DNA of 64,000 nucleotides from Mobula hypostoma (taxonomy: Eukaryota), in the NCBI RefSeq assembly GCF_963921235.1, contig NC_086108.1, forward strand, positions 47,122,001 through 47,186,000, in the 5' to 3' direction. Positions 473-63,385 of the stretch are shown piece after piece (the first letter of the stretch is position 1; the number at the start of each line of letters is the position of its first letter). The translations under genes and the position numbers were made by a program. Under the pieces are notes generated by a model. That model was not told the DNA's origin and did no database searches. It worked only from the letters and a program-made list of their open reading frames with translations.

Positions 473-979
<507 letters not shown>

Positions 980-992
980 TGAGATTATTTAT

Positions 993-1258
993 TTAGCGAT
1001 ATGGCGTGGATCAGGCCTTTCTGGCCCTTCGAACTGCGCCATGCAGCAACCTCTGATGTAACCATAACCTAGTCACAGGACAATTTAAAATGATTAATAA
1101 ATCTGCTGACATGTACGTCTTTGGACTGTGGGAGGAAACCAGAGAATCCAGAGAAAACCCATGAGGAGGACGTACAAACTCCTTACACAGGACGCCAGGA
1201 TTGTACTCTGAACTCCAGCGTCCCGAGCTGTGGTAGCATCACCCAGGTAACCACTACA
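993..1258 (-). mobile_element. V-SINE (HE1-like) element
   Basis: ttggactgtgggaggaaacc...gaaaaccc...cgtacaaactcc is the reverse complement of the V-SINE central domain. The same motif occurs at about 27921-28050. Confidence 0.7.
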
Positions 1259-1882
1259 CTAGTAAGACGTAGCTCAAAAACGTCCAGGCTCATCACTATC
1301 ATGGGAGGGGTTAAGCAAAGTGAACACTTTCCCCCATATTACTTAATATTGTTATGGGCTTTCTATTAGACAGGGATGGGTATGGTTTCTATCAGTGAAC
1401 AGGCAATGCTTACCTCAGTGATGATTCAGACATTTCCACGAGTCAGTGGAGTATTGCAATTTTTTGGCACATCTTTGAATTTTATCCCCTATCTGCTTTC
1501 ACTGGGTTGCTGTTGCCTCAGCATAAACTGATAGCAAGAGTGACATTGAGGGTATTAGTTATATTACAGACACAAAAGAACTCTGTTGCAGAAATCGGTT
1601 ATCCAGCCCATCTTCTTGTGGAGGAGTATACAGTGCATGGGTGAACCAGTGCACATTTTTGGTTGAAATTCCAACAGCCATTATGACTTCTTTGTATATT
1701 GTGTTTTTAGTATTCACTGGAGAATTATTTTTTAAAAAAGGCAATATTTCTCATGTAAGATATCGGGGTAAATGGAAAGGTGGGCTTCAAGGAGCTACTT
1801 TAAGGAATAGAGGGGTAGAGTCGGGAGATTTTGAGAGTGATTTCTTGAGGTTTGGGCATTGGCTATCAAAGGCATGAATATG

Positions 1883-1990
1883 AATCTTTCTGTATTATTT
1901 CATCCATATGCACAATGCATTTCTTCATACAGTACAGCAAAGTTTTAGAAATTCAGTGTATTTGAAAAGTATTGTAGCTTTTACAACTAC
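1883..1990 (+). repeat. 108-bp perfect direct repeat, copy 2
   Basis: Identical to 473-580, offset 1410 bp. Confidence 0.95.
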
Positions 1991-2789
1991 ATGGTGTGAG
2001 TAAATTCAGATGCTCAAGAGGCCAAAATCACAAGGTGTGTCATGAGAATTTTAAAGCTGGAAGAGATTGCATTGTACATAAATTGTAAGATTTGAAAGCT
2101 TAACTGAGAATTTTTTTTTAAAAGGCCAGCACAAGTCAGAACTGGAGAAATGAGAATGAGTCGGAGCAAGTGCAGTATGTTTAGAGTGACGTTTATGGAA
2201 AGTAGCATGAGGGAGACTGGCCATGCATATAACAGAATAGTGGGCCCTAGAGATAATGTAAACATGTATGAGCATTTAAGCATTCAACAAGCTAAACAAG
2301 GCTGATCTTGAGGATGTACTGAGCAGGAAATATAAAATCTTGAAGAGGCATTGACCTGAGGTCCAAACTTCCTCAACAGAATTCATATGTCTACTTGGAA
2401 AAATGATGTAATTGGTGGTTAGGGAATTAAGATTTTTACTGAAGCTGAAGATAATGAAGCTGTTGATTTTCTTAATATTAGAGCAAGTTTCTGTTTTTTG
2501 CTGAGCTCTTCATTTTTGTTATTGGCAGTAAGAATGGGTGAGAAGGAAGCAGAGTTTAAGACAATTGCTTTCAGGAGAAAAAGAGGAGAGGGTCATCTTT
2601 GCTTTCTGGGATGATTTTGGAAAACCAAGCAGATTTGGCAGATGAAAGTAGGGGGCCAAGAATGCCTTATGAAGTCCGGCCAAATCTAATGTGGACGAAA
2701 CCAGTCATGTGGTGTTCATTTATGTTCAGCTAATGACCTTGCATATTTTAATGAATAGCACACATGCTGTCTCGTGTTAGTACAGTTAT

Positions 2790-3815
2790 TACTAGTATCA
2801 AAGTAGAATTTACAAGTACAGTCAAAGTACAATTTATCATATGCACAAATACACAAATACTCAGGTGCAATTAAAGCTTATATGCAGCAGCATCTCAGGC
2901 ACATAATATCATATGAACAGCATTCACAAGAAAATCATAAGTTAAACATAAAATATGCACACATTTTAGAAACATTAGAACAAAAAAAAGTCCATTTTAG
3001 CGCAAAGTTTCAAAGTGTTCATAGAGTTGCCAAAATGCAGAGATTAGGCTTGTGCAATTGGTTCAGGAACCAAATGGTTGAAAGGAAGTACCTGTTCTTG
3101 AACCTGATAGTGTTGTACTTCAAGGGTTTGTACCTCCTACCCAATGGTAGCTGTTAGAAGATGGCATGGACTGGATGATGTAAAATGTTGCCACCTTGAA
3201 ACTGTAGATTCTACTGATGGTAAGGAGGGATATGTCCGTGACGTATTGGGTAGAGTCCATTACACTCTGCAACTGCTTACATTCAGAATGCAATAGTTAG
3301 GATACTTTCAACAGAATGTATGTTGAAGTTTGTTAAAGAGTATTTGGTAGCAAGTGGAACCTCCAAAGAAAGTAAGATTCTTGGTGCATACTCCTTGTAA
3401 TTACATCAGTGTGTTGGGCCAGAACAGATCGCCTGATATGCCAGGAACTTAAGTCTGCTGACTCACTCTGCCCCCAGTCTCCAATCTAGACTGGGGCATG
3501 TTCTTGCTCTTTCTCCTTCCTGAACTTAACAATCAGCTCTTTAGTTTTAATGACATTGAGTGAGAGGTTGTTGTTGTGGCACCACTTAGCCAGGTGTCTT
3601 ACCTTGCTCCTGTACATGGACATAACCATCTGTAATGGTGGTGTTGTCAGTTAATTTCCATATGGAATTGGAGCTATGCTTAGCCAAGTAATGTATTATT
3701 AGAGAGTAGAGCTGGAGCCGAAGCACGCAGCCTTGAGGCACACCTGTGTTGATGATCATCAAGGAGGGGAAGTTGTTACCAATCCTCACTGATTGACATC
3801 TGCCAATGAGGAAGT
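2790..3815 (-). mobile_element. Degraded Rex1/Babar-like LINE 3' portion
   Basis: ORF remnant INTGVPQGCVL...KLTDNTTI. A smaller related piece lies at about 4325-4640. Confidence 0.7.
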
Positions 3816-3957
3816 TGAGTAGACCAAAAGAACAGAAAAAAGAATGTAAGTTGATGTAACAAAAGAAATCTACATCAGAATATGATCATATTATTTGTAA
3901 TGGCCTTTTAATGTGTGTGTCTACGTATTTGCAATTATGTTTCGTGGCTTATGTTAA

Positions 3958-4116
<159 letters not shown>

Positions 4117-4929
4117 TGACTTGTTTTTTGAACACTTTAAGTTCTTCCCTGCCAATCCTTTGCCTAGGGAATAAGATTCAAGATTGTTTATTGTTATTCT
4201 TCATTAAAGGAGAATGAAATGATTGTTACTCTGAATCTGGAGGATGCTTGTAATCTAGAATACATAGTTGAAGAGAGTGGTGGAGGCAAGTATTCTTACA
4301 ATGTTTCAAAATTATCTAGATAAGCCCTGAATGATTGAGGTCTGGTCCATAATCCTCCAGCTTCTTTATTCTGTAGTCATAAATCATTTCTTTGGTTTTT
4401 GCTGATGTGGAGTAAGAGGTTGTTTTGTCACCATTTAATATCCCTCCTATATGCTTATTTGTCACCACCTTTGATTCAGCCAATAATAGTGGTGTTGTCA
4501 GCAAACTTAAATACAGCATTGCCACTATACTTAGCCATATAATGATAAGTATAAAATAAGTAGAGCAGGGGGCTAAGCACACAGCCCTGTTGTGCACCTG
4601 TGCTAGTGGAGGAGATCTTGTTGCCAACCCAAACTTCCCCTGTATCTTCAAATGCAAATTAGGTGGTCAATATCTTATTGCTTTTCATGACCTAATAGGT
4701 TATAGGACTTTCCACAGCAATAGCGATAAATCCTTTGTTTTTCTTAAATACTTAAGGACAACCTAGCATTATGTGAATAAACATTCGTAAAACATTATCC
4801 TAAGTTTAGGCAATTACGTCTTTATAAAATTCCAAATAAAAATAATGATTTTTTTTTGTGCAGCTGCCCATGAAGTTGCGTAAACACATGGATTATCAAT
4901 GAAAATAATGTGTGATTTTATGTCGTTAG

Positions 4930-5107
4930 GTGTTTGTACTTTGGAACCCCCTTTTTACATCGTTACTGAGTACATGCCACATGGGAATTTACTGGACTAT
5001 CTACGTGAATGCAATCGGGAGGAGGTGAACGCTGTGGTGCTCTTATATATGGCTACACAGATCTCCTCTGCCATGGAGTACCTGGAGAAAAAGAACTTCA
5101 TTCACAG
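4930..5107 (+). CDS. ABL2: ABL2 kinase exon (gatekeeper Thr to FIHR)
   Basis: ttag| acceptor, AG|gtcagg donor, 178 bp. Translates [32 protein letters not shown]...KKNFIHR. Confidence 0.97.
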
Positions 5108-5149
5108 GTCAGGCATACTAAATAATACAAAGTACTCTTGTATTATTTA

Positions 5150-5390
5150 CCTGTGGAATTCGTTGCTGTGGAGGCCAAGTCATTGGATGTACTTAAAGTG
5201 GAGGTTGATAGGTTCTTGATTAAAGATTACAGGGAGAAAGCAGGAGAATGGGGCGGAGAGGGATCATAAATCAGCCATGATGGAATGGCGGAGCAGAATC
5301 GATGGGCCGGATGGCATCGATTGGGTTGGCAAATCGATGGGCCGGATGGCATCAGACTTTGGTCTGCTCTTGTGTCCTATGGTTTTATGC
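5150..5390 (+). mobile_element. CR1 LINE 3' tail fragment with internal tandem duplication (aatcgatgggccggatggcatc x2)
   Basis: Matches the 3' ends of the CR1 copies at 38645-38890 and 47040-47450. Confidence 0.75.
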
Positions 5391-5559
5391 CTTCCAGAAT
5401 TATGGTTCAATAATTGGCTGGAGTCTCTCTCTTTTATGTTGGCATGTTGAGCAACTCTTGAAAATTGCATGGTATTTGAAATTTCCACAAATTCAGTAAA
5501 AAACAACTTATTATGAAATCTACATGTTATTTGCCATATTGTTGATTAAATCTGTTTAA

Positions 5560-5781
<222 letters not shown>

Positions 5782-5829
5782 TAATGATCATTGGATTCAA
5801 GACAAATTGCTTCATTTGTCAGAGATACT

Positions 5830-6575
5830 GTGCTGATTTCAATTTCTGGTACGCTAGAGACGTGCTGGGACGCAGCAACCTCTGCTGGGCCAACCAAAGG
5901 TGTTATTGTCTTTTTAAATGTATTTGTTGCGATCGCAAGACCCTGCTGGACATCAAGAACTTAATGTACTGCAGGTCTACCCCATCAACGAGTTGCTCGT
6001 TGGTGGAGAAACTGAAGGAACTGGACATGATGTGGATCATGCCTTTGTCAGAGAGCTGTCAGTGAGCGAAGGCAGTGTGCAGTCTGACCGCAAGTGATTA
6101 CCTTAGTTACTTTTCTTGTGCTCACAAGATCCTGTTGAACATTGGTAGTGTGGAATGCTGTGAGTCCGATTCACTGCTTTATGAGTTTATGTGGTGGAGC
6201 TGTGTGGCCTCAGTTGTAGCGAGGACTTGGCCTCAAATCGAGGTGTCGCCTGTTTGCATCTGACCAAGAGAGAGGCATCGGAGTTGATGTGCTTCACCAG
6301 AGGCAGTGTGGTGCAGTGTCTTTGCTGGAGTCAGTGCTGCCCTCCAGTGTTTGCCTGGCAGAAGACAAGATGTATTGTGTTTGACTGCAGAATGCTACAA
6401 TGTTCATGGACTAAAGGACCTGGGCTATTTTTTTTATGACTGTATTTTACTGCTGTCTTGTGTGCCTTGTGCTTTGAATGACTGTTGGTACTGTGGTTTG
6501 CACTTTAGCCGGGAGTAATGCTGTATTCTGTATTCATGTATGGTTGAACAACAAAGTTAAAGTTGAACTTGAACA
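5830..6575 (+). repeat. Unclassified interspersed repeat / non-autonomous retroelement
   Basis: CpG-richer than the surrounding intron, has internal diverged repeats (gatcgcaagaccctgctggacat / gctcacaagatcctgttgaacat) and a (ttgaac)n-type tail. Confidence 0.4.
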
Positions 6576-6874
6576 TGCTCACTTTTGAACTCAAGATTAA
6601 TATTGAAACAATTTGTTATTTTGGAATATTGAAGACAAAAACCATTTACTCTTAAAATTCCTCTATTTTATTCAACATTTTCTTCCCAATTCCAGCCCTG
6701 TTGCTGAAATTTATTGTCAGAGTTTAATTTTCTGGTTATGATATGTGATTCTTACAAGCGCAATAAGAGTAAAATCCTAAAAATGTGTTGCTTTATAAAT
6801 GTCATCCTACTTCCACGTAACTTTTTCCATTACCTGGTGGGCATAATTACTGTATGTTTGGAAATTTGGAAAAA

Positions 6875-7160
6875 GTCAGAGTCATGAATAAACACAGAAA
6901 GGAAGCAGGTACTTCGGCCCAACACATCTGTGCCGACAATAGTGTCTTCCTGAGCTCATCCCATTTGTCCCATATCCCTTTGACCTTGTCTTTGGACTGG
7001 TCCACGTGAAGATCCAAATGTCTATTAAACACCATGATTGTACCCACCTCTGCCACTTGCTGTGGTAGCTTGTTCCATTTGCCAACTACCATCTGTGCAG
7101 ATAAACTGACTCCTCTGGTCTCCTTTAAATCTTTTCTTCTCGCCCTACTTTGTATTTGAC
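6875..7160 (-). mobile_element. Old CR1 3' tail fragment
   Basis: Remnant ORF VVGKWNKLPQQVAEVGT resembles the CR1 ORF2 C-terminus of other copies here. Confidence 0.65.
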
Positions 7161-7285
7161 ACCTCAATCAGCAGCAAGGTTGCAATATGTTTAGCTAATT
7201 ATTTTTGAGAGGGATTGACTACCTCGTGATTGCGTTGACAGTGGATGGTTAATTGTTTCAGGTGTTGATGCAGAGGAATTATTAA

Positions 7286-7471
<186 letters not shown>

Positions 7472-8115
7472 TAATATGCTATGATAAATAGTTAGGACAG
7501 ATGTTTCAATTATTTGTTCATGTTGTTAAAAATGTGAATTACTTTAAGTAAGCAAGAATCACATTTTACTTGTGTGTCACCATGTGTGTTAGTGAATCCA
7601 TGGGAAAGGAAATGTGATAAGATTGCAGTGATCCTTTACGTTTGGTGAAATCAAGTAGCCAAGCTATTCTCAACATGTAAATTGCATTAACATGTTGGGA
7701 ATGAAATATTCTGGCCCATATCTCCAATATTCACAAATTTTAAGTGAATGCCTACATGATGTAATGCACGGAAAGCCAGGGCCCATTTTAAAATGACAAT
7801 CCTTTTCATGTTACAGATGTGGTTCTATTTTTGATTAGACTTACTGTACTCTTGTGGAGTACTCCTCAAAGGCAATCAATTAAAGAGTTTAAAAAAAAAA
7901 ATGTGCTTCATATATTTAGCAAACCCACCACTCCAGATTGGAACTATTTGCCGTGATTTAATTTGAAAAAGACAACAACATTTTGTGTTTAACCTTCAAA
8001 CTGGGTGGTACATATTATTGCAGAAGTATGAGTGCTACTCAAAAAGCAAGAACTAACTTATTTCATGGACTGAAGGCACATAACCATGTTTAATGTGTCT
8101 GCTTTAATTTCTAAG

Positions 8116-8205
8116 GCTGGCAGTGGAATCCCATGGAGCGGCCATTGTTCGCTGAGATCCATCAAGCATTTGAGACCATGTTTCATGACTCCAGCATTTC
8201 AGAAG
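8116..8205 (+). CDS. ABL2: ABL2 end of kinase exon ([30 protein letters not shown])
   Basis: ctaag| acceptor, G|gtaaag donor, 90 bp. Confidence 0.95.
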
Positions 8206-8661
8206 GTAAAGTATTGCATTTTGCTAATATTTTCATCATTTATATAAAATTTCATCATTGCTGTTCCTAGAACACACAATATTATTGCCATTAATATCAC
8301 AAACTGAACACAAACTGCTGTTAATTGTAAGCAGAACAACAAGAACTGCCCTGTCTGCTGGTTTGCAGTGGCTACACATAGACATTTACTGATGCATTTG
8401 TGTCATCGATTTATATGGCAAAATGATACTTTTAAATAAACCGAGATCAATGTGAAATAAGAGCAAGTAGACATTCATATTGGAAGAGTATGGAAGAAAA
8501 ATGATACAACCCATCATGGTAACCATGTACATCATTCTTAGTTGTATTTTGTTCCTCCATCACATCCTACCTCTCTATCTTGATTTTTTAATTTTTTTTT
8601 ATCAGTTATGAAGACTAAAATTAGTAATTCACACTTGTTAGTGCTGCTTTTCCTCTTGCAG

Positions 8662-8823
8662 AAGTTGCAGAAGAACTTGGAAAAACGGCCTCTTCGACTG
8701 TGATCACTCAGCACTTTCAGTTACCATTGCTTCCAACTAAAACCAGGACACTAAAGAAAAGTGCAGAAAATAAGGAAAATATGGACATGGATCATCCTGC
8801 TGTAGCTCATACTGTGGTAGCAG
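8662..8823 (+). CDS. ABL2: ABL2 penultimate exon (EVAEELGKTASS...PLLPTKTRTLKKSAENKEN..., PxxP motif)
   Basis: ttgcag| acceptor, CAG|gtac donor, 162 bp, phase 1 at both ends. Confidence 0.93.
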
Positions 8824-9536
8824 GTACTTGTTGCAAGTTGTAGTTTTTTTCCCATTTTGTTCTAATTTTTTTCTCTAACCCTTCTCGTGAAACTTCTGAA
8901 ATAAACTTTCGTGGGGAAGGTAGGTGAACACCTCAGGTCTGCTGCCTCTACTTTTAATTTCATATTGATTATGCTTATATTTACGTAATGAGTTTCTTTA
9001 GTCCAAGTGACAGTGTCCTCATTTCTCTCCAAAAGTTAAATTTGGTTCATGCCTTTCAAAACTTAACATGCGGTAGGATACAAGGTGAATTGAAATATGA
9101 CCGTACTTGGCTGTCTATTTTGTGATTAATTTTTAAGTGCAGTAGTAAATCTGAGTGGGTTTTAAATTCAGCTTTTAAAATCCTGTTGTGTTTTTTTTTG
9201 GAGCAAATGCAAAAAATGTTGTGTTCATAGCCAGAAAGACTTCATTTTCTGTACACTGCTACATTTTTATTAGCACTGAAAATTTAATTGAATGATAACA
9301 TCATAAAATAAGCAATAATATCAGTGAATAGTTGTGACAGGAAAACTTAGAAACTAGAAATTGAGCATAAAGTTTGCAACATGCAGGGAAACAAATATAA
9401 CTACAAAGGGGGAAAATGAGAACATAAAGCAAAAGCTGGAGACAGAAAAAAGATAATAAATATTGAGCAGTTAAAATACACTGTCACCATTTTTGGCTTA
9501 CATTTCCTATCTTTTTCTTTTCCCCAATACGAATAG

Positions 9537-11233
9537 GAACAAGTACAGCCCCATGTAGCATCTCCCCAGCACTGCCTCGTAAGCAGAGAGATAAATCTCC
9601 TAGTGGCCTCCTGGATGATAGCAAAGAGACCCTGTTTACTCGAGATAGAAAAGCTGGTTTCTTCAGTTCCTTCATGAAGAAGAAGACTGTTCCTATGCCA
9701 CCGAAGCGCAGCAGTTCCTTCCGTGAGATGGAGAACCACCCCCACAAAAAATACGAGATAACGGGTAACTTTGCTTCTTTCTCATCTTTTCAGCACTCTG
9801 ATGGGCTTGCATTCGTTCATTCACATGCAGAAGGGAATTTCACACAGTCTAGATGTTGTGGAAGGGGTTCTGTGCAAAGAAATGGAGGTGTAACTAGTGG
9901 AGGGTGGGCAGGATTTGCTGGATTTTTCACTCCTCGCTTAATAAAAAGAACACTTGGCTTAAAACCAGGGAAGCCTTCAAGTAATGATGATTCAAGCTTG
10001 GAAGCCACCAAACCATTTCCTCGGTCAAATTCTACTTCTTCCATGTCTTCAGGGCTTCAGGAACTGGATCGTCTAGCCTTAACCCTTCCTAGAAATTGCC
10101 ACCGCAACAGAATTCAGCTCGAGCACCCAATGCCGTACACTCCCAAGGAGGAAGGACCGGGGAGATTGACAGATCCACTGCACAGAAAAGCAGAAGATGG
10201 AGTTGCTTCATTGAGAGACAAGTCAAAAGCAAAACTTTTGGCAAGATGTGCTGTAGCACCATCTCTCAAGCAACACCATACAGGCAACGGAGATGCTGAT
10301 CTTCCCCAGAATGTCAACACAGTATCAGCTGGACATGGAGAAACTAATAGTAATCATTCTGGTCAACTAGCAATGAAAGAGGATATGGAGAAGACAAGTT
10401 GGTCTTCACCAGTAAAAGTTTCTACAATTCCAGCAGCACATAATCATAAAGTACCTGTTCTTATATCACCAACATTGAAGCATGCGCCTGCGGAAGTTCA
10501 GCTGATTGGAACTGATTCTCTTGGAAACAAATTTAAACTCCTGTCAGAGCATCAGGTTGCATCAGAGAGAGAGAGGCCAAGGCTTGTGAAACCAAAATGT
10601 GCACCCCCTCCACCCCCACCTTCCCTAAAACTATTACAACCACCTCCTAGCACTAATTTCAACAGCACAGAAACGGTGGAGGACTTAGAAAGTGTTTCAG
10701 CAGCACAGGAGAGTGAGGTAAATGGTGAAGGTAGCAAACGACCAACAATAGCAGTGTTTGGGAAGATCCCTAGGCCATCTGTTCCACCCCCTCAAGTGCC
10801 TCCAGGTTCATCCATTCCCACGGCAACTTCTTCTAAACTTGCAAACGGTACCTCTGTATCAACAGGTGCTCGAGTTTCCTTGCGAAAAACCAAGCTCCCA
10901 CCAGAGAAGATGCCAACAGAAAAAATCAGTAAAGAAGCATTATTGGAGTGTGCTGAGCTTCTTTCCAATGTTATTGACAATGATTCAGAGTCCACTTCTA
11001 ACAGCCAGTTAGTTGAAGCAGGACATCGGTTGCTTGATCATTGCTCTGGTTACGTGGACTGTATCACTCAAATGAGAAACAAGTTTGCTTTCCGAGAAGC
11101 TGTGAGCAAATTAGAGCACAGTTTGCATGAACTTCAGGTGTCATCCACAGCTTCTACTGGACCTCCTACAAACCCTGTACTCAGTAACTTACTGACATGT
11201 GTTAGAGAGCTAAGTGATATTGTACAGAGGTAG
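9537..11233 (+). CDS. ABL2: ABL2 last coding exon (PxxP motifs, cytoskeleton-binding regions, C-terminal F-actin-binding domain)
   Basis: First AG after the pyrimidine tract (9535-9536) gives the frame of the 9674-11233 ORF. Contains SPALPRKQRDKSP, PPKRSSSFREME, HNHKVPVLISPTLKH and RNKFAFREAVSKLE, and ends DIVQR*. Confidence 0.95.
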
Positions 11234-21314: not shown

Positions 21315-23620
21315 TTAGAAACCATAGAAAAACTACAGCACAGAATCAGGCCTTTGGCCCTTCTTGGCTGTGCCGAACCATTTTCTGCCTAGTCCCATAG
21401 ACCTGCACGTGGACCATATCCCTCCATACACCTCCCATCCATGTATCTGTCCAATTTATTCTTAAATGTTAAAAAAGAACCCGCATTTACCACCTCTTCT
21501 GGCAGCTCATTCCACATTCCCACCACTCTGTGTGAAGAAGCCCCCCCACCATGTTCCCTTTAAACTCCCCCACCCTTAACCCATGTCCTCTGGTTTTTTT
21601 CTCCCCTTGCCTCAGTGGAAAAAGCCTGCTTGCATTCACTCTATCTATACCCATCATAATTTTATATACCTCTATCAAATCTCCCCTTATTCTTCTACAC
21701 CCCAGGGAATAAAGTCCTAACCTTTTCAACCTTTCTCTGTAACTGAGTTTCTCAAGTCCTGGCAACATCCTTGTAAACCTTCTCTGCACTCTTTCAACCT
21801 TATTAATATCCTTCCTGTAATTTGGTGACCAAAACTGAACACAATACTCCAGATTCGGCCTCACCAATGCCTTATACAACCTCATCATAACATTCCAACT
21901 CTTATACTCAATACTTTGATTAATAAAGGCCAATGTACCAAAAGCTCTCTTTACGACCCTATCTACCTGCGATGCCACTTTTAGGGAATTTTGTACAGTA
22001 TCTGTATTCCCAGATCCCTCTGTTCTACTGCACTCCTCAGTGCCCTACCATTTACCCTGTATGTTCTACCTTGGTTTGTCCTTCCAAAGTGCAATACCTT
22101 ACACTTGTCTGTATTAAACTCCGTCTGCCATTCTTCAGCCCATTTTTCCAGCTGGTCCAAGTCCCTCTGCAAGCTTTGAAAACCTTCCTCGCCGTCCACT
22201 ACACCTCCAGTCTTTGTATCATCAGCAAATTTGCTGATCCAATTTACTACATTATCATCCAGATCATTGATATAGATGACAAATAACAATGGACCCAGCA
22301 CTGATCCCTGTGGCACACCACTAGTCACAGGCCTCCACTCCTGGAAGCAATTCTCTACTACCACTCTTTGGCTTCCTCCATTGAGCCAATGTTTAATCTA
22401 ATTTACCACCTCTCCATGTATACCTAGTGACTGAATTTTCCTAACTAACCTCCCATGCGGAACCTTGTCAAAGGCCTTACTGAAGTCCATGTAGACAACA
22501 TACACTGCCTTCTCTTCGTCCACTTTCCTGGTAACCTCCTCAAAAAAACTCCAATAGATTGGTCAAACATGACCTACCACGCACAAAGCCATGTTGACTC
22601 TCCCTAATAAGTCCCTGTCTATCCAAATGCTTGTAGATTCTGTCTCTTAGTACTCCCTCCAATAACTTACCCACTATCGATGTCAAACTTACTGGCCTAT
22701 AATTTCCCGGATTACTTTTCGATCCTTTTTTAAACAGCGGAACAACATGAGCCATTCTCCAATCCTCCGGCACCTCACCCCTAGACACCAACATTTTAAA
22801 CTTATCTGCCAGAGCCCCTGCAATTTCAACATTAGTCTCCTTCAAGGTCCGAGGGAATACCCTGTCAGGTCCTGGGGATTTATCCAATTTAATTTGCCTC
22901 AAGATAGCAAGCACCTCCTCCTTTTCAATCTGTACAGTTTCCATGATTTCACTACTTGTTTCCCTTAATTCCATAGACTTCATGCCAGTTTCCCTAGTAA
23001 ATACAGATGCAGAAAACCCGTTTAAGATCTCCCCCATTTCTTTTGGTTCCGCACATAGCCGACCACTCTGATCTTCAAGAGGACCAATTTTATCCCTTAC
23101 AGTCCTTTTACTCTTAATATACCTGTAAAAGCTCTTTGGATTATCCTTCACTTTGACTGCCAAGGCAACCTCCTGTCTTCTTTTAGCCCTCCTGATTCCC
23201 TTCTTAAGTATTTTCTTGCACTCTTTATACTCAAGCACCTTATTTACTCCCTGTTTCCTATACATGTCATACAACTCTCTCTTCTTCTTTATCAGAGTTG
23301 CAATATCCCTTGAGAACCAAGGTTCCTTATTCCTATTCACTTTGCCTTTAATCCTGACAGGAACATACAAGCTCTGCACTCTCAAAATTTCTCCTTTGAA
23401 GGCTTCCCACTTACCAATCACATCCTGGCTAGAGAACAACCTGTCCCAATCCACGCTTTTTAGATCCTTTCTCATTTCTTCAAATTTGGCCTTCTTCCAG
23501 TTCAGAACCTCAACCCTAGGATCAGATCTATCCTTGTCCATGATCAAGTTGAAACTAATGGTGTTATGATCACTGGAACCAAAGTGCTCCGCTACACACA
23601 CTTCCGTCACTTGTCCTAAC
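21315..23620 (-). mobile_element. CR1 LINE, 5'-truncated ORF2 (RT)
   Basis: ORFs with KSPGPD, NYRPVSLTS, SQHGF, SGVPQGSVLGP, SKFADDTK and LVRPNLEYCVQFWSP. Frameshifted. Confidence 0.92.
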
Positions 23621-23644
23621 TAAATTCTGTTGGTGCTGGAAATA

Positions 23645-26600
23645 ACCATATGACCTTATAACAATTACAGCACTGAAACAGGCCGTCTCGGCCCTTCTAG
23701 TCTGTGCCGAACTCTTACCCTATCCTAGTCCCACTGACCTGCACTCAACTCATAACCCTCCATTCCTTTCCTGTCCATATATCTATCCAATTTAACTTTA
23801 AATGACAACATTGAACCTGCCTCAACCACTTCTGCTGGAAGCTTGTTCCACACAGCTACCACTCTCTGAGTAGAGACGTTCCCCCTCATGTTACCCCTAA
23901 ACTTTTGCCCTTTAACTCTCAACTCATGTCCTCTTGTTTGAATCTTCCCCATTCTCAATGGAAAAAGTCTAACCATGTCAACTCTATCAATCCCCCTCAT
24001 AATTTTAAACACCTCTATCAAGTCCCCCCTCAACCTTCTACGCTACAAAGAATAAAGACCTAACTTGTTCAATGTCCTCTGTAACTTAGGAGATGAAACC
24101 CAGGAAACATTTTAGTAAACCTCCTCTGTACACTCTCAATTTTATTGACATCTTTCCTATAATTCAGTGACCAGAACTGTACACAATACTCCAGTTTTAG
24201 CCTTACCAATGCCTTATACAAATTCAACATTACATCCCAACTCCTATACTCAATGCTCTGATTTATAAAGGCCAGCATACCAAAAGCTTTCTTCACCACC
24301 CTATCCACATGAGATTCCATCTTCAGCGAACTATGCACCATTATTCCTAGATCCCTCTGTTCTGAAGCATTCTTTAATGCCCTACCATTTACCATGTATG
24401 TCCTATTTTGATTAGTTCTACCAAAATGTAGCACCTCACATTTTTCAACATTAAACTCCATCTGCCATCTTTCAGCCCACTCTTCTAACTGACCTAAATC
24501 TCTCTGCAAGTTTTGAAAACCTACCTCATTATCCACAACACCACCTATCTTGGTATCATCTGCATACTTACTAATCCAATTTACCACCCCATCATCCAGA
24601 TCATTAATATATATTACAAACAACATTGGACCCAGCACAGATCCCTGAGGCACACCGCTACACACCATCCTCCAATCTGACACACAGTTATCCACCACTA
24701 CTCTCTGGCATCTCCCATCTAGCCACTGCTGAATCTATTTTACTACTTCCATATTAATGCCTAACGATTGAACCTTCCTAAATAACCTTCCGTGTGGAAC
24801 CTTGTCAAAGGCCTTACTGAAGTCCACATAGACAACATCCACCGTTTTACCCTGGTCAATTTTCTTAGTAACCTCATCAAAAAATTTGATTTGTCAAACA
24901 TGACCTTCCACGCACAAATCCATGTTGACTGTTCCTAATCAGACCCTGTCTATCCAGAAAATTATATATACCATCTCTAAGAATACTTTCCATCAGTTTA
25001 CCCACTATTGACGTGTCAGAGCCCCTGCTATTTCTACACTAACTTCCCTCAAAGTCCTAGGGAATATCTTGTCCGGACCCAGAGACTTATCCACTTTTAT
25101 ATTCCTTAAAAGTGCTAGTACTTCCTCTTCTTTAATTGTCATACTTTCCATAACTACCCTACTTGTTTCCTTTACCTTACACATTTCAATATCCTTCTCC
25201 TTAGTGAATACCGAAGAAAAGAAATTGTTCAAAATCTCCCCCATCTCTTTTGGCTCCGCACATAGCCGTCCACTCTGATTCTCCAAGGGACGAATTTTAT
25301 CCCTCAGTATCCTTTTGCCACTAACATAACTGTAGAAACCCTTTGGATTTATTTTCACCTTACTTGCCAAAGCAGCCTCGTATCTTCTTTTAGCTTTTCT
25401 AATTTCTTTCTTAAGATTCTTTTTACATTCTTTATATTCCTTGAGTACCTCATTAACTCCAAGCTGCCTATATTTATTGAAGATCCCTCTCTTTTTCTGA
25501 AACAAGTTTCTAATATCTCTTGAAAACCATTGGCTCTCTCAAACTTTTAACCTTTCCTTTCAACCTAACAGGAACATAAAGATTCTGAACCCTCAAAATT
25601 TCACCTTTAAATGACCTCCATTTCTCTGTTACATCCTTCCCATAAAACAAATTTTCTCAATCCACTTCTAAATCCTTTCGCATCTCCTCAAAGTTAGCCT
25701 TTCTCCAATCAAAAATCTCAATCCTAGGTCCAGTCCTATACTTCTCCAAAATTACACTGAAACTAATTGTATTGTGATCACTGGACCCGAAGTGCTCCCC
25801 AACAAATACCTCTGTCACCTGCCATGTTTCCTTCCCTAACAGGAAATCCAACACTGTCCCTTCTCTAGTTGGTACCTCTATGTATTGCTTCAAAAAACTA
25901 TCCTGCACACATTTTACAAAAACTCCAAACCATCCAGCCCTTTTACAAAATGGGCTTCCCAGTCTATGTGTGGAAAATTAAAATCTCCCACAATCACAAC
26001 CTTGTGCTTACTACAAATATCTGCTATCTCCTTACAAATTTGCTTCTCCATTTCTTGGTCCCCATTAGGTGGTCTATAATACACCCCTATAAGCATCACA
26101 ACACCTTTCCTATTTCTCAATTCCACCCAAATAGCCTCCCTAGACGAGTCCACTAATCTATGCTGCCAGAGCACCGCTGTTATATAATCTCTGACAAGCA
26201 ATGCAACACCTCCCCCTCTTGCCCCTCCTATTCTATCACACCTGAAGCAACGAAATCCTGGAATATTTAGTTGCCAATCACACCCCTCCTGCAACCATGT
26301 TTCACTAATAGCTACAACATCATATTTCCAGGTATCAATCTATGCTCTAAGCTCATCCACCTTTCTTACAATGCTCCTAGCATTAAAACAGATGCATTTA
26401 AGAAACTCTCCACCTCCCACTCCCTATTTATCCTTAATGGAGCAAACAACTTTGTTATCTTTTGCTTCCTTCTCCCCTACATCAACCTCCCCTCTCCTAG
26501 TCTCCTTAATTAGATTCCCTCCCCCCAACCATTCTAGTTTAAAGTCACCTTAGTAGCCCTTGCAAATCTCCCCGCCAGGATATTGGTCCCCCTATGATTC

Positions 26601-27680
26601 AAGTGCAACCTGTCCTTTTTGTACAGGTCATGCCTGCACCAATAGTGGTCCCAATGATCCAAAAACCCGAATCCCTGCCCCTTGCTCCAATCTCTCAGTG
26701 ACACATTTATCCTATATTTCATTGCATTCCTACTTTCACTGTTGCCTAGCACAGGCAGTAATCCCGAGATTACTACCTTTGTCGTCCTTTTTCTCAACTC
26801 CCTTCATAACTCCCTATATTCTTCTTTCAGGACCTCTCCCCTTTTTCAACAGATGTCATTGGTACCTATATGTACCACGACCTCTGGCTCCTCTCCCTCC
26901 CACTTCAAGATCTCTTGGAGGCGATCAGAAACATCATGGACCCTAGCACCAAGGAGGCAAACTACCATCCGGGTCTCCTGACTTCATCCACAGAATCGTC
27001 TATCTGACCCCCTAACTATTGAGTCCCCTATTACTATTGTCCTCCTCTTCCGTTCCCTATCCTCCTTAGCTACAGGGCTGGACTCTGTGCTGGAGGCATG
27101 GCCAGTGTTGCTTCCCCCAGGTATGCTGTCCCCTTCAACAGTACTCAAACAGGAGTACTTATTGTCAAGGGGCACAGCCACAGCAGTACTCTCTATTACT
27201 TTATTCTTCCCCTTCCCCCTCCTAACCGTGACCCACTTGTCTGCCTCCCGTGGCCCCGGTGTGACCACCTGCCTGTAACTTCTCTCTATCTACTCCTCAC
27301 TCTCCCTGATAAGACGAAGGTCATCGAGCTACAGCTCCAGTTTCCTAATGCGGTCTCTTAGGAGCTGCATCTCGACGCACCTGGTGCAGATGTGGATGTC
27401 TGGGAGTCTTGGAGACTCCACTACCTCCCACATCTGGCACTGAGAACAACAAGCTGCCCTCACACTCATACTTCCCCTTTCTTCAAATAACAGTGGAAAA
27501 AAAAGTGAATAACCAAACCCTCTTCGCCTTGCCCATTTCCGCCTAAGCCCGTTTAGCCAAAGCCCTTAAGCCTCCACTCTGCTCCCGGCTCACTCCGCCG
27601 CCCACTGTATAAGGCTGTGTTCCTTTTCAATCTTCCTCATTTCCCTCCATGACTGCACAGTCCTGACTCTCTCGATGCCG
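23645..27680 (-). mobile_element. Near full-length CR1 LINE: ORF1 (27469-26534, zinc finger/leucine zipper plus GDSL-SGNH esterase) and ORF2 (APE endonuclease plus RT), decayed
   Basis: ORF1 reads MSVRAACCSQCQ...CTRCVEMQLL...IVIGDSIVRG...DRLHLN...VTLN* in one frame with internal stops. ORF2 has FNARSI, GDFNFP, SDHN and YADD. Internal deletion near 25012. Confidence 0.92.
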
Positions 27681-55280: not shown

Positions 55281-56439
55281 GATAAAATCAATCTCAACAT
55301 GCTTACATCTCTTACTGATTAGTCTTGCCAGTGGCATTGAAACAACAAGATTTTTTAAAATATAATGTTTATTTGTTTAAACTAATGTTGCCAAAATCTA
55401 ATGTTCAGAAGTACCAGGAATTTTTAATGTCATATTTTGGATTGGCATTTTGAACACAAAACTTTGTTTTTGTTTTTGTCATCAGGGTCAAAGCATTTGT
55501 ACTAAAAGGAGTGTTCAAATTGCATACTTTGGCAATGACGTGAATGTTGGAAATGCTGTGCTAGGGCAGATGATCCTTGAACATTATGCTGTTGCTAGGA
55601 GGAAAGAAATATGGGCTGAAATTTTTTGAAATAGTGACATTTTCAATAATTATTTTTCAGACTGTTCTGAGAAACTATTATTAAACACAGACAACAGAGT
55701 AAAAATGCCTAACCTGCTGTGAGACTCAACTGAAGAAGGAAAATATTTTTATCCTTTAAGTCATTTACATTTCCTAGTGCCTTTTTTTCTAATATATCCC
55801 TAATTCAATAGATTAAATACAACTTTCCTGCAATTTTCTCTTGGATCTCTTTGGCAATGAGCCAATTCTGTCCTCGTGCATTTATGGTTCCTTCAGTCTA
55901 CCATTAGTCAGTGTACCTGTGGCTGTTGTAGATTTGAATCTATTCCCTCCCTGAACCTCACTGCCTCTGTTCCACTTCCTCCTCATTTGAGAACTTGATG
56001 CTCTGCTGTAACTTCTGGTCACTCGTCCAAGTATCTCCTTTTGCACTTTAGTGCCAAATGTTACCCACAAAGCTCCTGTAAGCAATAGCTCTGTTTGTTG
56101 TAGTGAGGTATTCCTTGTGCTGATAACCAAAGGGAATACATTCTCAGCTGATGATTATCAGTCTTGGTTGGTAGCCTTTTGGCTTATCACTGTATGAGAC
56201 CTTCAGAAGATTTTGAAAATGCCTAATAAATTCTCTCTCCTACTTTGTTCTGGCATATGTGAATGTAAGTATATGTGTATATATGTGCGTATCAGTCATA
56301 TGTGAATGTGACTTAAAATTGTCCACCTTTTGGAAACTAAACCACCCCCACTTTGCCTTGTCTCAGAAATAATTATGATTTTAGTTATGGAAAAAAACTT
56401 GAAAACAGATTAACACTGAAACAATTAAAACTTTCAGGG

Positions 56440-57230
56440 GTGGAAGAATAACACGTCTGTTTTTACCTTGTCTCGGAGTTCCAATCCTGTGGGCTATTTC
56501 GATGTCGGGCAATTGTGAAAATGCCTCAGGAAATAGAGATTGAAACACTTTAGCGAAATAGTCCAGTATATCGGCAGATTCTGATTGCTCTTTCAATCCA
56601 ACAATTCGAATATTATAACGACGAGAACAAGCTTCCAAATCAACAATCAACCCGTGGAGGGTCAGATATCCTGAGCCAATAGACTGGTCCTTGACTTATT
56701 TTCCATTTGGCATAGTTTGCATTTGTTGTTTGATTGTTTGTGATTTTTGTATTGCTATATTTATGCTCTATTCTTGGTTGGTACGGCTGTAACGACACCC
56801 AATTTCCCCCGGGATCAATAAAGTATATCTATCTATCTATCTATAATTTGCCGTTGCGCTTTTTCCAAACAAGAGGAAATATCTGCCGCATTACGAGTTA
56901 CTTCTTTAAGATCCAAGCTCAAAGAATCAATTTTTTCCTCCAAAGGAAGAAGACTTTCTTTTAGGTGGGTTAATTCAGCGACAATAGAGCTCATTTGAGT
57001 CTCTAATCTATTAAACTAGGCTGGCTCTTCAGAAGCTTCGTCAGTTTTTTTAGATTTACCATTACCTGTATCGGGAATTTTTTTAGTGCTTCTCAAGGTA
57101 GCCATAATTATAATTATCACTTTAAAAGATCCGACTGAATAAAGTTAAAATTTCAAAGTTTAAGTCGGGAAAGGGAGAAATTAAAGGCAGACAGAAAGAC
57201 ACTGTGTCTTACATGTCCACAGGCGGACGG
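56440..57230 (-). mobile_element. L1/Tx1-like 5' end with ORF1 remnant, interrupted by a short LINE-tail insert (about 56651-56845)
   Basis: ATG at 57105 (MATLRSTKK). DLEACSRRYNIRIVGLKE and IEIAHRIG are typical L1 ORF1 motifs. Confidence 0.75.
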
Positions 57231-58359: not shown

Positions 58360-58686
58360 GTTTAGAGGTTGATAGTGCCTTGATATGTTGTGGAGGTGGA
58401 AGGAAGGGCTTTTGGAAATAATGGTTAAAATTTGGCTGTGTTTTGCAAAACCCACTAGGACTTCATGGAGATTAGTTCAAGTTATGGACTTACAAGAGCG
58501 AGATAGATCAATTGGTTGAGTGGTGATGCAAAAACAACCTCACACTCAACGTCAGCAAGACCGAGGAACTGATTGTGGACTTCAGGATAGGGACGGCAGG
58601 AGAATAGACACCTATCCTCAGGGTGGTCAGCAGTGGAAAGGGTGAGCAGCTTAAAGTTCCTGGGCATCAACATCTGAGAGGACCCA

Positions 58687-61600
58687 ACATAGAAACATAG
58701 AAACATAGAAAATAGGTGCAGGAGTAGGCCATTCGGCCCTTCGAGCCTGCACCGCCATTTATTATGATCATGGCTGATCATCCAACTCAGAACCCAGCCT
58801 TCCCTCCATACCCCCTGACCCCTGTAGCCACAAGGGCCATATCTAACTCCCTCTTAAACATAGCCAATGAACTGGCCTCAACAGTTTGCTGTGGCAGAGA
58901 ATTCCACAGATTCACCACTCTCTGTGTGAAGAAGTTTTTCCTAATCTCGGTCCTAAAAGGCTTCCCCTCTATCCTCAAACTGTGACCCCTCGTTCTGGAC
59001 CTCCCCATCATCGGGAACAATCTTCCCGCATCTAGCCTGTCCAATCCCTTTGGGATCTTATACGTTTCAATCAGATCCCCCCTCAATCTTCTAAATTCCA
59101 ACGAGTACAAGCCCAGTTCATCCAGTCTTTCTTCATATGAAAGACCTGCCATCCCAGGAATCAATCTGGTGAACCTTCTTTGTACTCCCTCTATGGCAAA
59201 GATGTCTTTCCTCAGATTAGGGGACCAAAACTGCACACAATACTCCAGGTGTGGTCTCACCAAGGCCTTGTACAACTGCAGTAGTACCTCCCTGCTCCTG
59301 TACTCAAATCCTCTCGCTATAAATGCCAGCATACCGTTCGCCTTTTTCACCGCCTGCTGTACCTGCATGCCCACTTTCAATGACTGGTGTATAATGACAC
59401 CCAGGTCTCGTTGCACCTCCCCTTTTCCTAATCGGCCACCATTCAGATAATAATCTATTTTCCTATTTTTGCCACCAAAGTGGATAACTTCACATTTATC
59501 CACATTAAATTGCATCTGCCATGAGTTTGCCCACTCACCCAACCTATCCAAGTCACCCTGTATCCTCTTAGCATCCTCCTCACTGCTAACACTGCCACCC
59601 AGCTTCGTGTCATCCGCAAACTTGGAGATGCTGCATTTAATTCCCTCATCCAAGTCATTAATATATATTGTAAACAACTGGGGTCCCAGCACTGAGCCTT
59701 GCGGTACCCCACTAGTCACCGCCTGCCATTCTGAAAAGGTCCCGTTTATTCCCACTCTTTGCTTCCTGTCTGCTAACCAATTCTCCACCCACACCAATAC
59801 CTTACCCCCAATACCGTGTGCTTTAAGTTTGCACACTAATCTCCTGTGTGGGACCTTGTCAAAAGCCTTTTGAAAATCCAAATATACCACATCCACTGGT
59901 TCTCCCCTATCCACTCTACTAGTTACATCCTCAAAAAATTCTATGAGATTCGTCAGACATGATTTTCCTTTCACAAATCCATGCTGACTTTGTCCGATCA
60001 TTTCACCGCTTTCCAAATGTGCTGTTATCACATCCTTGATAACTGACTCCAGCAGTTTCCCCACCACCGACGTTAGGCTAACCAGCCTATAATTCCCCGG
60101 TTTCTCTCTCCCTCCTTTTTTAAAAAGTGGGGTTACATTAGCCACCCTCCAATCCTCAGGAACTAGTCCAGAATCTAACGAGTTTTGAAAAATTATCACT
60201 AATGCATCCACTATTTCTTGGGCTACTTCCTTAAGCACTCTGGGATGCAGACCATCTGGCCCTGGGGAATTATCTGCCTTCAATCCCTTCAATTTACCTA
60301 ACACCACTTCCCTACTAACATGTATTTCACTCAGTTCCTCCATCTCACTGGACCCTCTGTCCCTTACTATTTCTGGAAGATTATTTATGTCCTCCTTAGT
60401 GAAGACAGAACCAAAGTAATTATTCAATTGGTCTGCCATGTCCTTGCTCCCCATAATCAATTCACCTGTTTCTGTCTGCAGGGGACCTACATTTGTCTTT
60501 ATCAGTCTTTTCCTTTTTACATATCTATAAAAGCTTTTACAGTCCGTTTTTATGTTCTCTGCCAGTTTTCTCTCATAATCTTTTTTCCCCTTCCTAATTA
60601 AGCCCTTTGTCCTCCTCTGCTGAACTCTGAATTTCTCCCAGTCCTCAGGTGAGCCACTTTCTCTGGCTAATTTGTATGCTACTTCTTTGGAATTGATACT
60701 ATCCCTAATTTCTCTTGTCAGCCACGGGTGCACTACCTTCCTTGATTTATTCTTTTGCCAAACTGGGATGAACAATTGTTGTAGTTCATCCATGCAACCT
60801 TTAAATGCTTGCCATTGCATATCCACCGTCAATCCTTTAAGTGTCATTTGCCAGTCTATCTTAGCTAATTCATGTCTCATACCTTCAAAGTTACCCCTCT
60901 TTAAGTTCAGAACCTTTGTTTCTGAATTAACTATGTCACTCTCCATGTTAATGAAGAATTCCACCATATTATGGTCACTCTTACCCAAGGGGCCTCTCAC
61001 GACAAGATTGCTAATTAACCCTTCCTCATTGCTCAAAACCCAGTCCAGAATAGCCTGCTCTCTAGTTGGTTCCTCGACATGTTGGTTCAAAAAACCATCC
61101 CGCATACATTCCAAGAAATCCTCTTCCTCAGCACCTTTACCAATTTGGTTCACCCAGTCTACATGTAGATTGAAGTCACCCATTATAACTGCTGTTCCTT
61201 TATTGCACACATTTCTAATTTACTGTTTAATACCATCTCCGACCTCACTACTACTGTTAGGTGGCCTGTACACAACTCCCACCAGCATCTTCTGCCCCTT
61301 AGTGTTACGCAGCTCTACCCATATCGATTCCACATCTTCCCGGCTTATGTCCTTCCTTTCTATTGCGTTAATCTCTTTTTTAACCAGCAACGCCACCCCA
61401 CCTCCACTTCCTTCATGTCTATCCCTCCTGAATATTGAATATCCCTGAACGTTGAGCTCCCATCCCTGGTCACCCTGGAGCCATGTCTCTGTGATCCCAA
61501 CTATATCATAATCATTAATAACAATCTGCACTTTCAATTCATCCACCTTATTGCGAATGCTCCTTGCATTGACACATAAAGCCTTCAGGCGCTCTTTTAC

Positions 61601-61857
61601 AACTCTCTTAGCCCTTGTACAATTATGTTGAAAAGTGGCCCTTTTTAATGCTTGCCCTGGATTTGTCGGCCTGCCACTTTTACTTTTCTCCTTTGTACTT
61701 TTTGCTTCTACGCTCACTTTACACCCCTCTGTCTCTCTGCACTGGTTCCCATCCCTCTGTTGTGAACTAACCTCCTCACGCCTAGCCTCTTTAATTTGAT
61801 TCCCACCCCCCAACCATTCTAGTTTAAAGTCACCTCAGTAGCCCCCGCTAATCTCCC
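58687..61857 (-). mobile_element. Young CR1 LINE: last codons of ORF1 plus complete ORF2 with one premature stop, inserted in a Rex1 fragment
   Basis: ORFs 61220-61813 and 58787-61210 share a frame and are separated by one TAA. VNARSI, ITETW, GDFN, SDHN and FADD are present. (ttctatgt)n tail. Rex1 sequence on both flanks (about 58480-58686 and 61858-61935). Confidence 0.95.
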
Positions 61858-61944
61858 TGAAGAAGGCACAGCAGCGGCTCGACTTCGTGACGAGTTTGAG
61901 ATTTGATATGTCACCAAAGAAGCTCATAAATTTCAATTAGAGTC

Positions 61945-63385
61945 AGACAAACTTGGAAAGGGTGAATACAGGACTGAAGATTTTATATTTGAATGTATGC
62001 AGTATATGGAATAAAGTAAATGAACTTGTAGCACAGTTACAGATTGTTATATACGATGTTGCGGGCATCACTGAATCGTGGCTGAAGGAAGATTATAGCC
62101 TGGAGCTTAACATCCAAGGACACACATTGTATCAAAAGGACAGGCAGGCTGGCAGAGGGATGGCATGGGTCTGTTGGTAAAAAATGAAATCTTATCATTA
62201 GAAAGAGGTGACATAGGATAGAAAGGTGTTAAATCATTGCGGGTAGAGCAAAGGAACTACAAGGGCAAATACCTTGACAGAAGTTGTATAGAGAGCCCCA
62301 AACAGTAATAAAGATATGGTCTACAAATTACAATGGGAGATTGAAAATGCATGTCAAAAGAGCAATATTAAGATGGTCATGGGGATATCAATACGCAGGT
62401 AGATAGGGAAAATCAGATTGGTGTTGGATCCCAAGAGAGGGAGTTTCTAGAATACCTACTAGATGGATTTTTAGAGCAGCTCATGGTTAAGCCCACTAGG
62501 GCATCAGCTATTCTGAACTGGGTGTTGTGCAATGAATTTAAATTGATTAGAGAGCTTAAGGGAAAGGAACCCTTAGGAGTCAGTTATCATAATATGATAG
62601 AATTCACCCTGCAAGTTGAGAAAGAGAAGCTAAAGTCAGATATATAAGTGTTACAGTGGATTAAAGGGAATTACAGAGGCACAAGAAAGGAGCTGGCCAA
62701 AATTGATTAGAAAAGAACACTGGCAGGGATGACAGCAGAGTAGCAATGACTGGAATTTCTGGGAGCAAGAGGACCACAACCATGTCATGGTTTGAAGGCT
62801 TGCATGCCTCAATGACCCAGAGAGTTATGCTGGCTGGCATTAGGGCTTTATGCTGTGGCTCTTGATAAGGTCACCCATGCCAAACAGTCAAAGGGTAGAG
62901 GCCAGACCAAGAGTGGTCCACTGATCCTCCAGGCTCGGGGGTTCAGCTCAGGGCTAACAACCCTGACTGGTCAAACAAAACTGTTATGGATACAGCAATG
63001 AAGAATCAGTATCAACAGTATGCAACAGTATCCCGGAGTCTCCACCTGGGGCTTGAATGACTGACATTAAACTGAGCGGAAGCTACTGACACAAAGAAGG
63101 AAGCTGTGAACACCACTGGAGATAGGGGACCTTCATTGCTGCCCTAAATGCCAGCAGTGTAACAAGAAAGAGAAAGAAGTATCCTAAAGACAGGGTGACA
63201 CAATTGTGACTGACAAGAGAAGTCAAAGCCAACATAAAAGCCAAAGAGAGGGCATATAATAGAGCAAAAATCAGTGGGAAATTAGAAGACTGGGAAGCTT
63301 TTAAAAAGTAACAGAAGGCAACTAAATAAGACAAAAATAAGGAAAAGATTGATTACGGAGTTAAGCTAGCCAATAATATTCGAGA
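61945..63385 (+). mobile_element. Decayed CR1 endonuclease region
   Basis: LKILYLNVCSIWNKVNEL...GITESWL, with many stops. Confidence 0.8.
62770..63162 (+). mobile_element. Short non-autonomous RTE-derived element nested in CR1
   Basis: Interrupts CR1 collinearity. The 5' part resembles fish RTE (Rex3/Expander) 5' UTRs and it ends ttcattgctgccctaaatgccagc like RTE 3' ends (family recognised from memory). Confidence 0.5.

Follow-up and report, generated by a model that had tools for sequence, protein, structure and literature searches.

A probable -1 frameshift site at the ORF1-ORF2 junction of esterase-type CR1 retrotransposons

Two CR1 copies in the Mobula window

The stretch of Mobula hypostoma DNA analysed here (64,000 nt, hereafter the window) contains many LINE fragments, together with what we take, from the translation, to be exons of an ABL-family tyrosine kinase (539-11233, plus strand), including a last exon of 588 codons. 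Two of the LINE copies, referred to as elements A and B, are described in Table 1. By their sequence they are CR1 LINEs of the esterase type, with an SGNH esterase encoded in ORF1 and an AP endonuclease and a reverse transcriptase encoded in ORF2. ORF1 of A has domain matches to PF13472 and PF17182, and its closest protein match is a protein of Mobula (77%); the ORF1 profile (A2) matches PDB entry 4C1B, 'ORF1-encoded protein', at E=7.8e-40, this being the esterase structure of ZfL2-1, a solved relative. Within ORF2, PF03372 is found in both copies and PF00078 in B. Neither copy has LTRs; B ends in a short tandem repeat of 8-nt units, a 3' tail typical of CR1, and the tail of A is degraded. Junction contexts match consensus-table entries labelled CR1. 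The layout is also that given in PMC4120745 for the vertebrate CR1 group whose ORF1 is of type IV (esterase; CR1 subgroup 7), where zf/lz and esterase are followed by APE and RT.

The initial annotation considered A to be full-length, which is borne out from the ORF1 ATG to the 3' UTR only. Element B occupies the minus strand between about 61857 and 58686, and because it is 5'-truncated at about 61857, comparison of the two copies within ORF1 is confined to some 30 nt. Another 5'-truncated CR1 (21368-23619, minus strand), 72-75% like the ORF2 of A, directly adjoins the 3' end of A. A further CR1 fragment (61900-62770, plus strand) lies head to head with B and is truncated in the linker ahead of any junction, and a fragment at 56381-56695 (minus strand) presumably resembles an L1-type ORF1.

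Table 1. Features of elements A and B (positions in the window)
Feature	Position	Strand	Remarks
Element A, ORF1	26534..27469	-	311 codons with 5 internal stops (decayed copy); N-terminal Cys-pair motifs and SGNH/GDSL esterase
Element A, ORF1 stop TAG	26534..26536	-	abuts the 3' end of the heptamer
Element A, slippery heptamer U_UUA_AAC	26537..26543	-	in ORF1 phase, final 7 nt ahead of the ORF1 stop
Element A, G-run	26517..26530	-	starts 6 nt 3' of the heptamer; may act as stimulator, either as a two-tier G-quadruplex or as a protein site
Element A, -1 frame linker	26403..26543	-	47 codons, none of them AUG; a single stop (26426-26424) from decay
Element A, ORF2 (AP endonuclease and reverse transcriptase)	23725..26402	-	interrupted by stops and indels
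Element A, 3' UTR	23640..23724	-	end approximate, read by eye
Element B, heptamer	61822..61828	-	followed by TAG and the same G-run
Element B, A-like block at the truncated 5' end	61769..61857	-	87.6% identity over 89 nt
Element B, second, older post-junction module within the linker	61677..61759	-	by-eye match to ScyCan_CR1-1a
Element B, -1 frame	58787..61828	-	80-codon linker free of AUG and stops, leading into endonuclease and RT, which a single stop near 61220 interrupts
Element B, 8-nt tandem repeat tail	58686..58715	-	3' end of B

The end of ORF1 and the -1 frame

ORF1 of A ends in GTG ACT TTA AAC TAG, with the heptamer where the initial annotation had placed it and in the X_XXY_YYZ phase; a heptamer and stop of the identical GTG ACT TTA AAC TAG type are found in B. 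The 10-mer comprising heptamer and TAG, TTTAAACTAG, occurs twice in the window, at these two junctions only. As a measure of chance, an X_XXY_YYZ heptamer precedes 44 of the 6859 stop triplets in the six frames of the window, and TTTAAAC exactly precedes five. The -1 frame entered at the heptamer of A is indeed the frame of the endonuclease ORF (25914-26339), and, as had been claimed, it gets there without an AUG: no in-frame Met is present in A or B. The linkers do differ in length as reported, but measure 47 (A) and 80 (B) codons and not the estimated 45 and 75 or so. In the linker of B, the -1 frame has no stops against four and eight in the other two frames (probability of no stop 0.006 in shuffles), and the linker of A has one against two and six. 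The TAG in the linker of A had been ascribed to decay, and an additional stop lies within the first part of the endonuclease (26342-26340). At both positions about 99% of the related-contig depth in run X1 has a sense codon, as do the contigs of runs X15 and X19, so that the two -1 frame stops of A represent decay of that copy.

The end of ORF1 is conserved at the protein level. A Leu-Asn (LN) C-terminus was found in 38 of 60 first-pass homologs. Among 134 ORF1 homologs, 104 contain the esterase block-V motif. It lies no more than 34 residues from the end in 97 of them, and 85 of these 97 end in Leu-Asn-stop; rays, sharks, Xenopus, turtles, lizards and an eel are among the named hosts. The distance from the motif to the end varies from 24 to 32 residues with LN or GN terminal throughout, and the alignment to 4C1B stops at profile position 309, ahead of the LN at 313-314. 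When 50%-identity representatives are added, the motif lies near the end in 193 of 268 proteins, which form 61 C-terminal clusters. The last three residues are able to encode X_XXY_YYZ in 33 of these clusters (one of which, P0186, has a garbled end) compared with 5.5% of internal tripeptides, and in the other 28, which include two entire clades of the tree, the heptamer is not encodable. Four distant homologs (P0172, P0215, P0244 and P0256) end in Phe-Phe-x and could hide a U-rich heptamer one codon ahead of the stop.

The residue ahead of the terminal Leu shows no chemical constraint (A, G, Y, T, S, C, F, D, H or N). In the 131 LN-enders it has codons ending only in pyrimidines in 37 cases and only in purines in two, whereas positions -10 to -4 show the opposite bias (108 pyrimidine-only, 172 purine-only). 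The 10 GN-enders have a pyrimidine-only residue there in no case and a purine-only one in nine, Gln in all nine. At the level of clusters the contrast is 12:0 for LN and 0:8 for GN (Fisher p=8e-6), a p-value that overstates the case since independent switches of the ending are few and the clusters are kin. Two further proteins end in Ser-Lys-Asn. These endings would fit G_GGA_AAC for Gln-Gly-Asn and A_AAA_AAC for Ser-Lys-Asn; together with U_UUA_AAC they are three of the four heptamers rated most shifty for mammalian ribosomes in a frameshifting review (PMC5009743). A tree was built from 63 of the 67 rows chosen, the four without the anchor motif being left out. The clade with the vertebrate proteins of named hosts has the LN ending, as do two distant clades; GN is largely confined to a single clade, in which KN is nested, and in two clades no such ending occurs. 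Some five changes suffice among the four ending classes.

The DNA spelling of the junction could be read in several sources. Seven proteins run past the end of ORF1: in four the sequence is F-K-L, as the heptamer reads in the -1 frame, two are mutated-stop readthroughs after LN and one is uninterpretable. A search for longer proteins gave 12 matches, of which four were read and yielded two more F-K-L models; the two fusions among those read have the look of frame-slipped copies and not of natural single-ORF elements. Four of the six F-K-L gene models continue into the endonuclease through open linkers. A metagenome search returned 15 loci, five of them CR1-like and from one sample (L001, L002, L003, L009 and L015), with three reaching the end of ORF1. 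Locus L003 has T_TTA_AAC ahead of the stop and a -1 frame open to the endonuclease; L015 has T_TTA_AAA ahead of the stop and a -1 frame that leads to the endonuclease with decay stops; L002 is decayed and does not fit the heptamer. The ten other loci are other LINE-like or microbial esterases in which no such junction was seen, scans of viral contigs gave no match, and a scan of prokaryote genomes gave four weak esterase loci.

The widest sample of junctions comes from a consensus table in the supplement of PMC13343379, of which the first 400 nt of each entry were covered in a search conditioned on the motif, so that the counts might change with the remainder of the entries. By eye, 17 of 23 motif matches lie at CR1 ORF1 ends, in entries from alligator, crocodile, bowfin, bullfrog, chimaera, coelacanth, two rays, two sharks and a halosaur fish. 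The ORF1 stop varies across lineages (TAG, TAA, TGA; a lizard entry has the heptamer ahead of TGA) and the heptamer stays constant. Six synonymous spellings gave 54 matches in the same part of the table, and of the 42 viewed none coincides with the end of an ORF1; motifs specific to A and B gave no match there. Conservation of the heptamer at the nucleotide level thus appears to exceed what the protein would need. As far as comparison of sequences can establish it, the junction is a real feature conserved across jawed vertebrates. The cis-acting recoding signal proposed in the initial annotation is thereby supported, although through distant lineages that keep heptamer and stop and not through the near-identity of A and B. 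The site persists far beyond these two elements, so that the condition named there as a refutation, its absence from distant CR1 families, does not hold, even if certain distant clades are without it. Some lineages carry a stop-AUG overlap, and some are without the heptamer site.

Apparent mosaic structure of element B

What does the resemblance between the two junctions signify? The initial annotation described A and B as two subfamilies, but they are more distant than that, with ORF2 windows averaging 57% identity. The block of about 90 nt around the junction is 86-88% identical, and the 50 nt 3' of the heptamer 86%, which exceeds every one of 2604 ORF2 windows (maximum 82%). As evidence of recoding, the near-identity claimed for the junctions is weak, because B looks grafted. 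Its A-like block holds about 30 nt of ORF1, the heptamer and about 53 nt of linker, and extends some 30 nt beyond the part that is common to other shark and ray lineages: summed related-contig depth, a rough measure, is 753,846 in X1 in the bin 26514-26537 against 81,242 in the next, with a like drop past the first 24 nt 3' of the heptamer in X15 and X19.

Downstream of this block, the linker of B at 61759-61677 matches the catshark consensus ScyCan_CR1-1a, the one consensus row on which the mosaic reading is based, at 65 of 83 nt, ungapped and in the same frame (by eye). The matching stretch begins 8 nt past the heptamer in ScyCan_CR1-1a and 62 nt past it in B, a shift of 54 nt or 18 codons. 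Element B thus appears to be a mosaic that received an A-type junction by a graft in which the frame was kept, and the module at 61677..61759 is probably the scar of a frame-preserving graft. The endonuclease start of ScyCan_CR1-1a is A-like, so that the exchanges may have occurred in more than one order. A single X19 contig, in which an A-like junction is joined to a B-like endonuclease start, hints that the mosaic is not private to this copy. The linker of B looks layered from at least two junction modules, and linker length may be a record of successive ORF1 swaps.

Recombinational swapping of ORF1 had been offered in the initial annotation as an alternative to a recoding signal. Swapping of 5' modules that preserved the frame probably explains the length of the match between A and B, and in this part the suggestion holds; it is not exclusive of a recoding signal, and both appear to be true.

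Proposed frameshifting and its alternatives

We propose that esterase-type CR1 probably makes an ORF1-ORF2 fusion by programmed -1 ribosomal frameshifting. Ribosomes on the last two ORF1 codons (UUA AAC) would mostly stop and release ORF1p, and a minority would slip back one base on U_UUA_AAC, read through the variable linker and then translate the endonuclease and reverse transcriptase. The slip, whatever its efficiency, would yield a low ratio of a Gag-Pol-like ORF1p-ORF2p fusion, which might or might not be cleaved later. The closest likeness is to viral and retroviral -1 frameshifting (coronavirus IBV with U_UUA_AAC, gag-pol), where PMC5009743 describes the same heptamers in the same phase and a structural ORF fused to a polymerase ORF. 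CR1, however, is a non-LTR retrotransposon, and a candidate G-run is found in place of a stem-loop or pseudoknot. Dictyostelium TRE5-A and TRE3-A are APE-type LINEs whose ORF2 is said to require a -1 frameshift (PMC5911963), although they belong to another lineage with another ORF1, not that of esterase-type CR1, and no slippery site or assay for them was seen in the accessible text of that paper. Other LINEs differ in mechanism: a +1 frameshift, reinitiation or readthrough has been suggested for those of Paramecium (PMC5405496), which departs from the present proposal in direction as well, and 2A-containing LINEs show recoding at the start of ORF2 (PMC3708506).

Vertebrate CR1 with type IV ORF1 is usually drawn as two separate ORFs, unlike the fusion proposed here. 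The word 'frameshift' is absent from the accessible main text of PMC4120745 and supplement text of PMC13343379, none of the six mentions of 'frame' in the accessible main text of the latter concerns frameshifting, and CR1 is unmentioned in the accessible part of PMC5009743. We found no account of frameshifting in CR1 in the literature covered; an earlier mention, for instance in the CR1 sequence papers of the 1990s, is possible. Frameshifting in CR1 would thus be a new combination of a known recoding mechanism and a known element family.

What could stimulate the slip? Stem-loops and local pairing 3' of the heptamer are no more stable than in shuffles (z-scores -0.4 to +0.6, ordinary folding). 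Long-range pairing of the G-run has no common partner in A and B, the best partners differing between them, for which reason these were taken as chance. The G-run itself, 6 nt past the heptamer in both copies, is predicted to form a two-tier G-quadruplex, and its G4Hunter-type score falls in the top 0.5% (A) and 0.2% (B) of the windows of each element. Four or more consecutive Gs near the stop are found by eye in 13 of the 17 consensus junctions and are absent from four, again within the first 400 nt of the entries. According to PMC5009743, synthetic G-quadruplexes stimulate frameshifting and no natural case was known in 2016. We regard a stimulatory role of the G-run as possible, with somewhat less than even confidence.

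The main rival to frameshifting is coupled termination-reinitiation near the ORF1 stop, either at a stop-overlapping AUG, as in the UAAUG of SART1, or without AUG, as in mammalian L1; it would produce a separate ORF2p, and we think it improbable. Both systems translate two ORFs from one RNA, and the stop-AUG overlap resembles that of some CR1. UAAUG reinitiation is described for SART1 in PMC3708506, and L1 tolerates other sense codons in place of the ORF2 AUG according to PMC1965478; they differ from the present proposal in yielding a separate ORF2p and needing no slippery heptamer. Reinitiation draws support from a bird-like CR1 in L003 (2995-3010), which combines the heptamer with a stop that overlaps an AUG of the ORF2 frame, from three of the 17 consensus junctions (shark entries, within the first 400 nt) with the same overlap, and from in-frame Met in three of the six linkers examined, A and B included: of the four F-K-L linkers that reach the endonuclease, three have Met, at codons 19, 36 and 44 respectively, and the fourth has none. 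The overlap is absent from A and B, however, and their AUG one base past the ORF1 stop is in the +1 frame and opens a mini-ORF that closes after 8 codons (26532-26506 and 61817-61791, minus strand). The -1 codon past the stop is highly variable among the consensus junctions in the part of the table covered. With reinitiation, moreover, one would not expect a heptamer ahead of the stop or its putative G_GGA_AAC and A_AAA_AAC variants, and the stop-AUG lineages retain the heptamer, L003 and the three shark entries alike. In such lineages reinitiation may operate alongside frameshifting.

It is less probable still that no recoding signal exists, the A/B match being a recent ORF1-module swap and Leu-Asn being kept as a protein C-terminus. 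Such a reading accords with the mosaic structure of B and with the ORF1 shuffling among LINEs proposed in PMC4120745, yet swapping cannot account for a site found from chimaera to lizards. Constraint on the protein, for its part, leaves unexplained the preference for TTA over other Leu codons, the bias towards T-ending codons ahead of Leu, the Gln ahead of Gly-Asn and the stop-free -1 linkers. As far as the heptamer is concerned, this reading is largely refuted. We assign a similarly slight probability to the heptamer being an RNA-level element with another job, such as base-adding polymerase slippage, RNP assembly or a template-switch hot spot. The truncation point and the graft point of B do both lie within about 60 nt of it, and G-runs bind proteins; but the heptamer lies in the codon phase of ORF1 and directly at its stop, polymerase slippage would need runs longer than three, and no indel at the heptamer is listed in the contigs of X15 and X19 (which are RNA only by guess). 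The variant list comprises 40 of 133 places, none in 26521-26550, too small a share to weigh as evidence. Splicing of ORF1 or a 5' AUG to ORF2 is the least credible alternative: a donor-like AG|GTGACT stands immediately 5' of the heptamer in A and B, but it is absent from other lineages in the part of the consensus table covered, none of the 15 joints listed, of 27, begins at the junction, and an intron would not require the linker to be open in frame.

Frameshifting as the preferred reading can be extended into a broader and rather doubtful hypothesis. The jawed-vertebrate split dates to roughly 450 million years ago. A virus-style -1 frameshift in esterase-type CR1, by this hypothesis the retrotransposon that dominates in sharks, reptiles and birds, would predate that split, a G-quadruplex or a G-run-binding protein would act as stimulator instead of a pseudoknot, and the need to keep the frame would leave in-frame linker scars after ORF1 swaps, as in B.

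How two-ORF LINEs translate ORF2 is called unclear in PMC3708506, and the cases that have been worked out are of reinitiation. Should CR1 use frameshifting, this would explain how it produces its copying enzyme, with ORF2p made as a fusion to the esterase ORF1p. Vertebrate genomes would then supply natural frameshift sites in large number, perhaps with a G-quadruplex as stimulator; the 2016 review (PMC5009743) foresaw such a class but knew of no natural member. The junction offers an element of 40-60 nt suited to a standard reporter. CR1 ORF2 annotations that begin at a downstream Met would be truncated.

Two database records of ORF1 homologs carry unexpected host names. A shark-type CR1 ORF1 (P0023) is recorded as a hydrolase of Pseudomonas aeruginosa; its 4.2-kb contig is probably host contamination, and P0057, which bears a flatworm name and resembles frog CR1, is probably contamination likewise.
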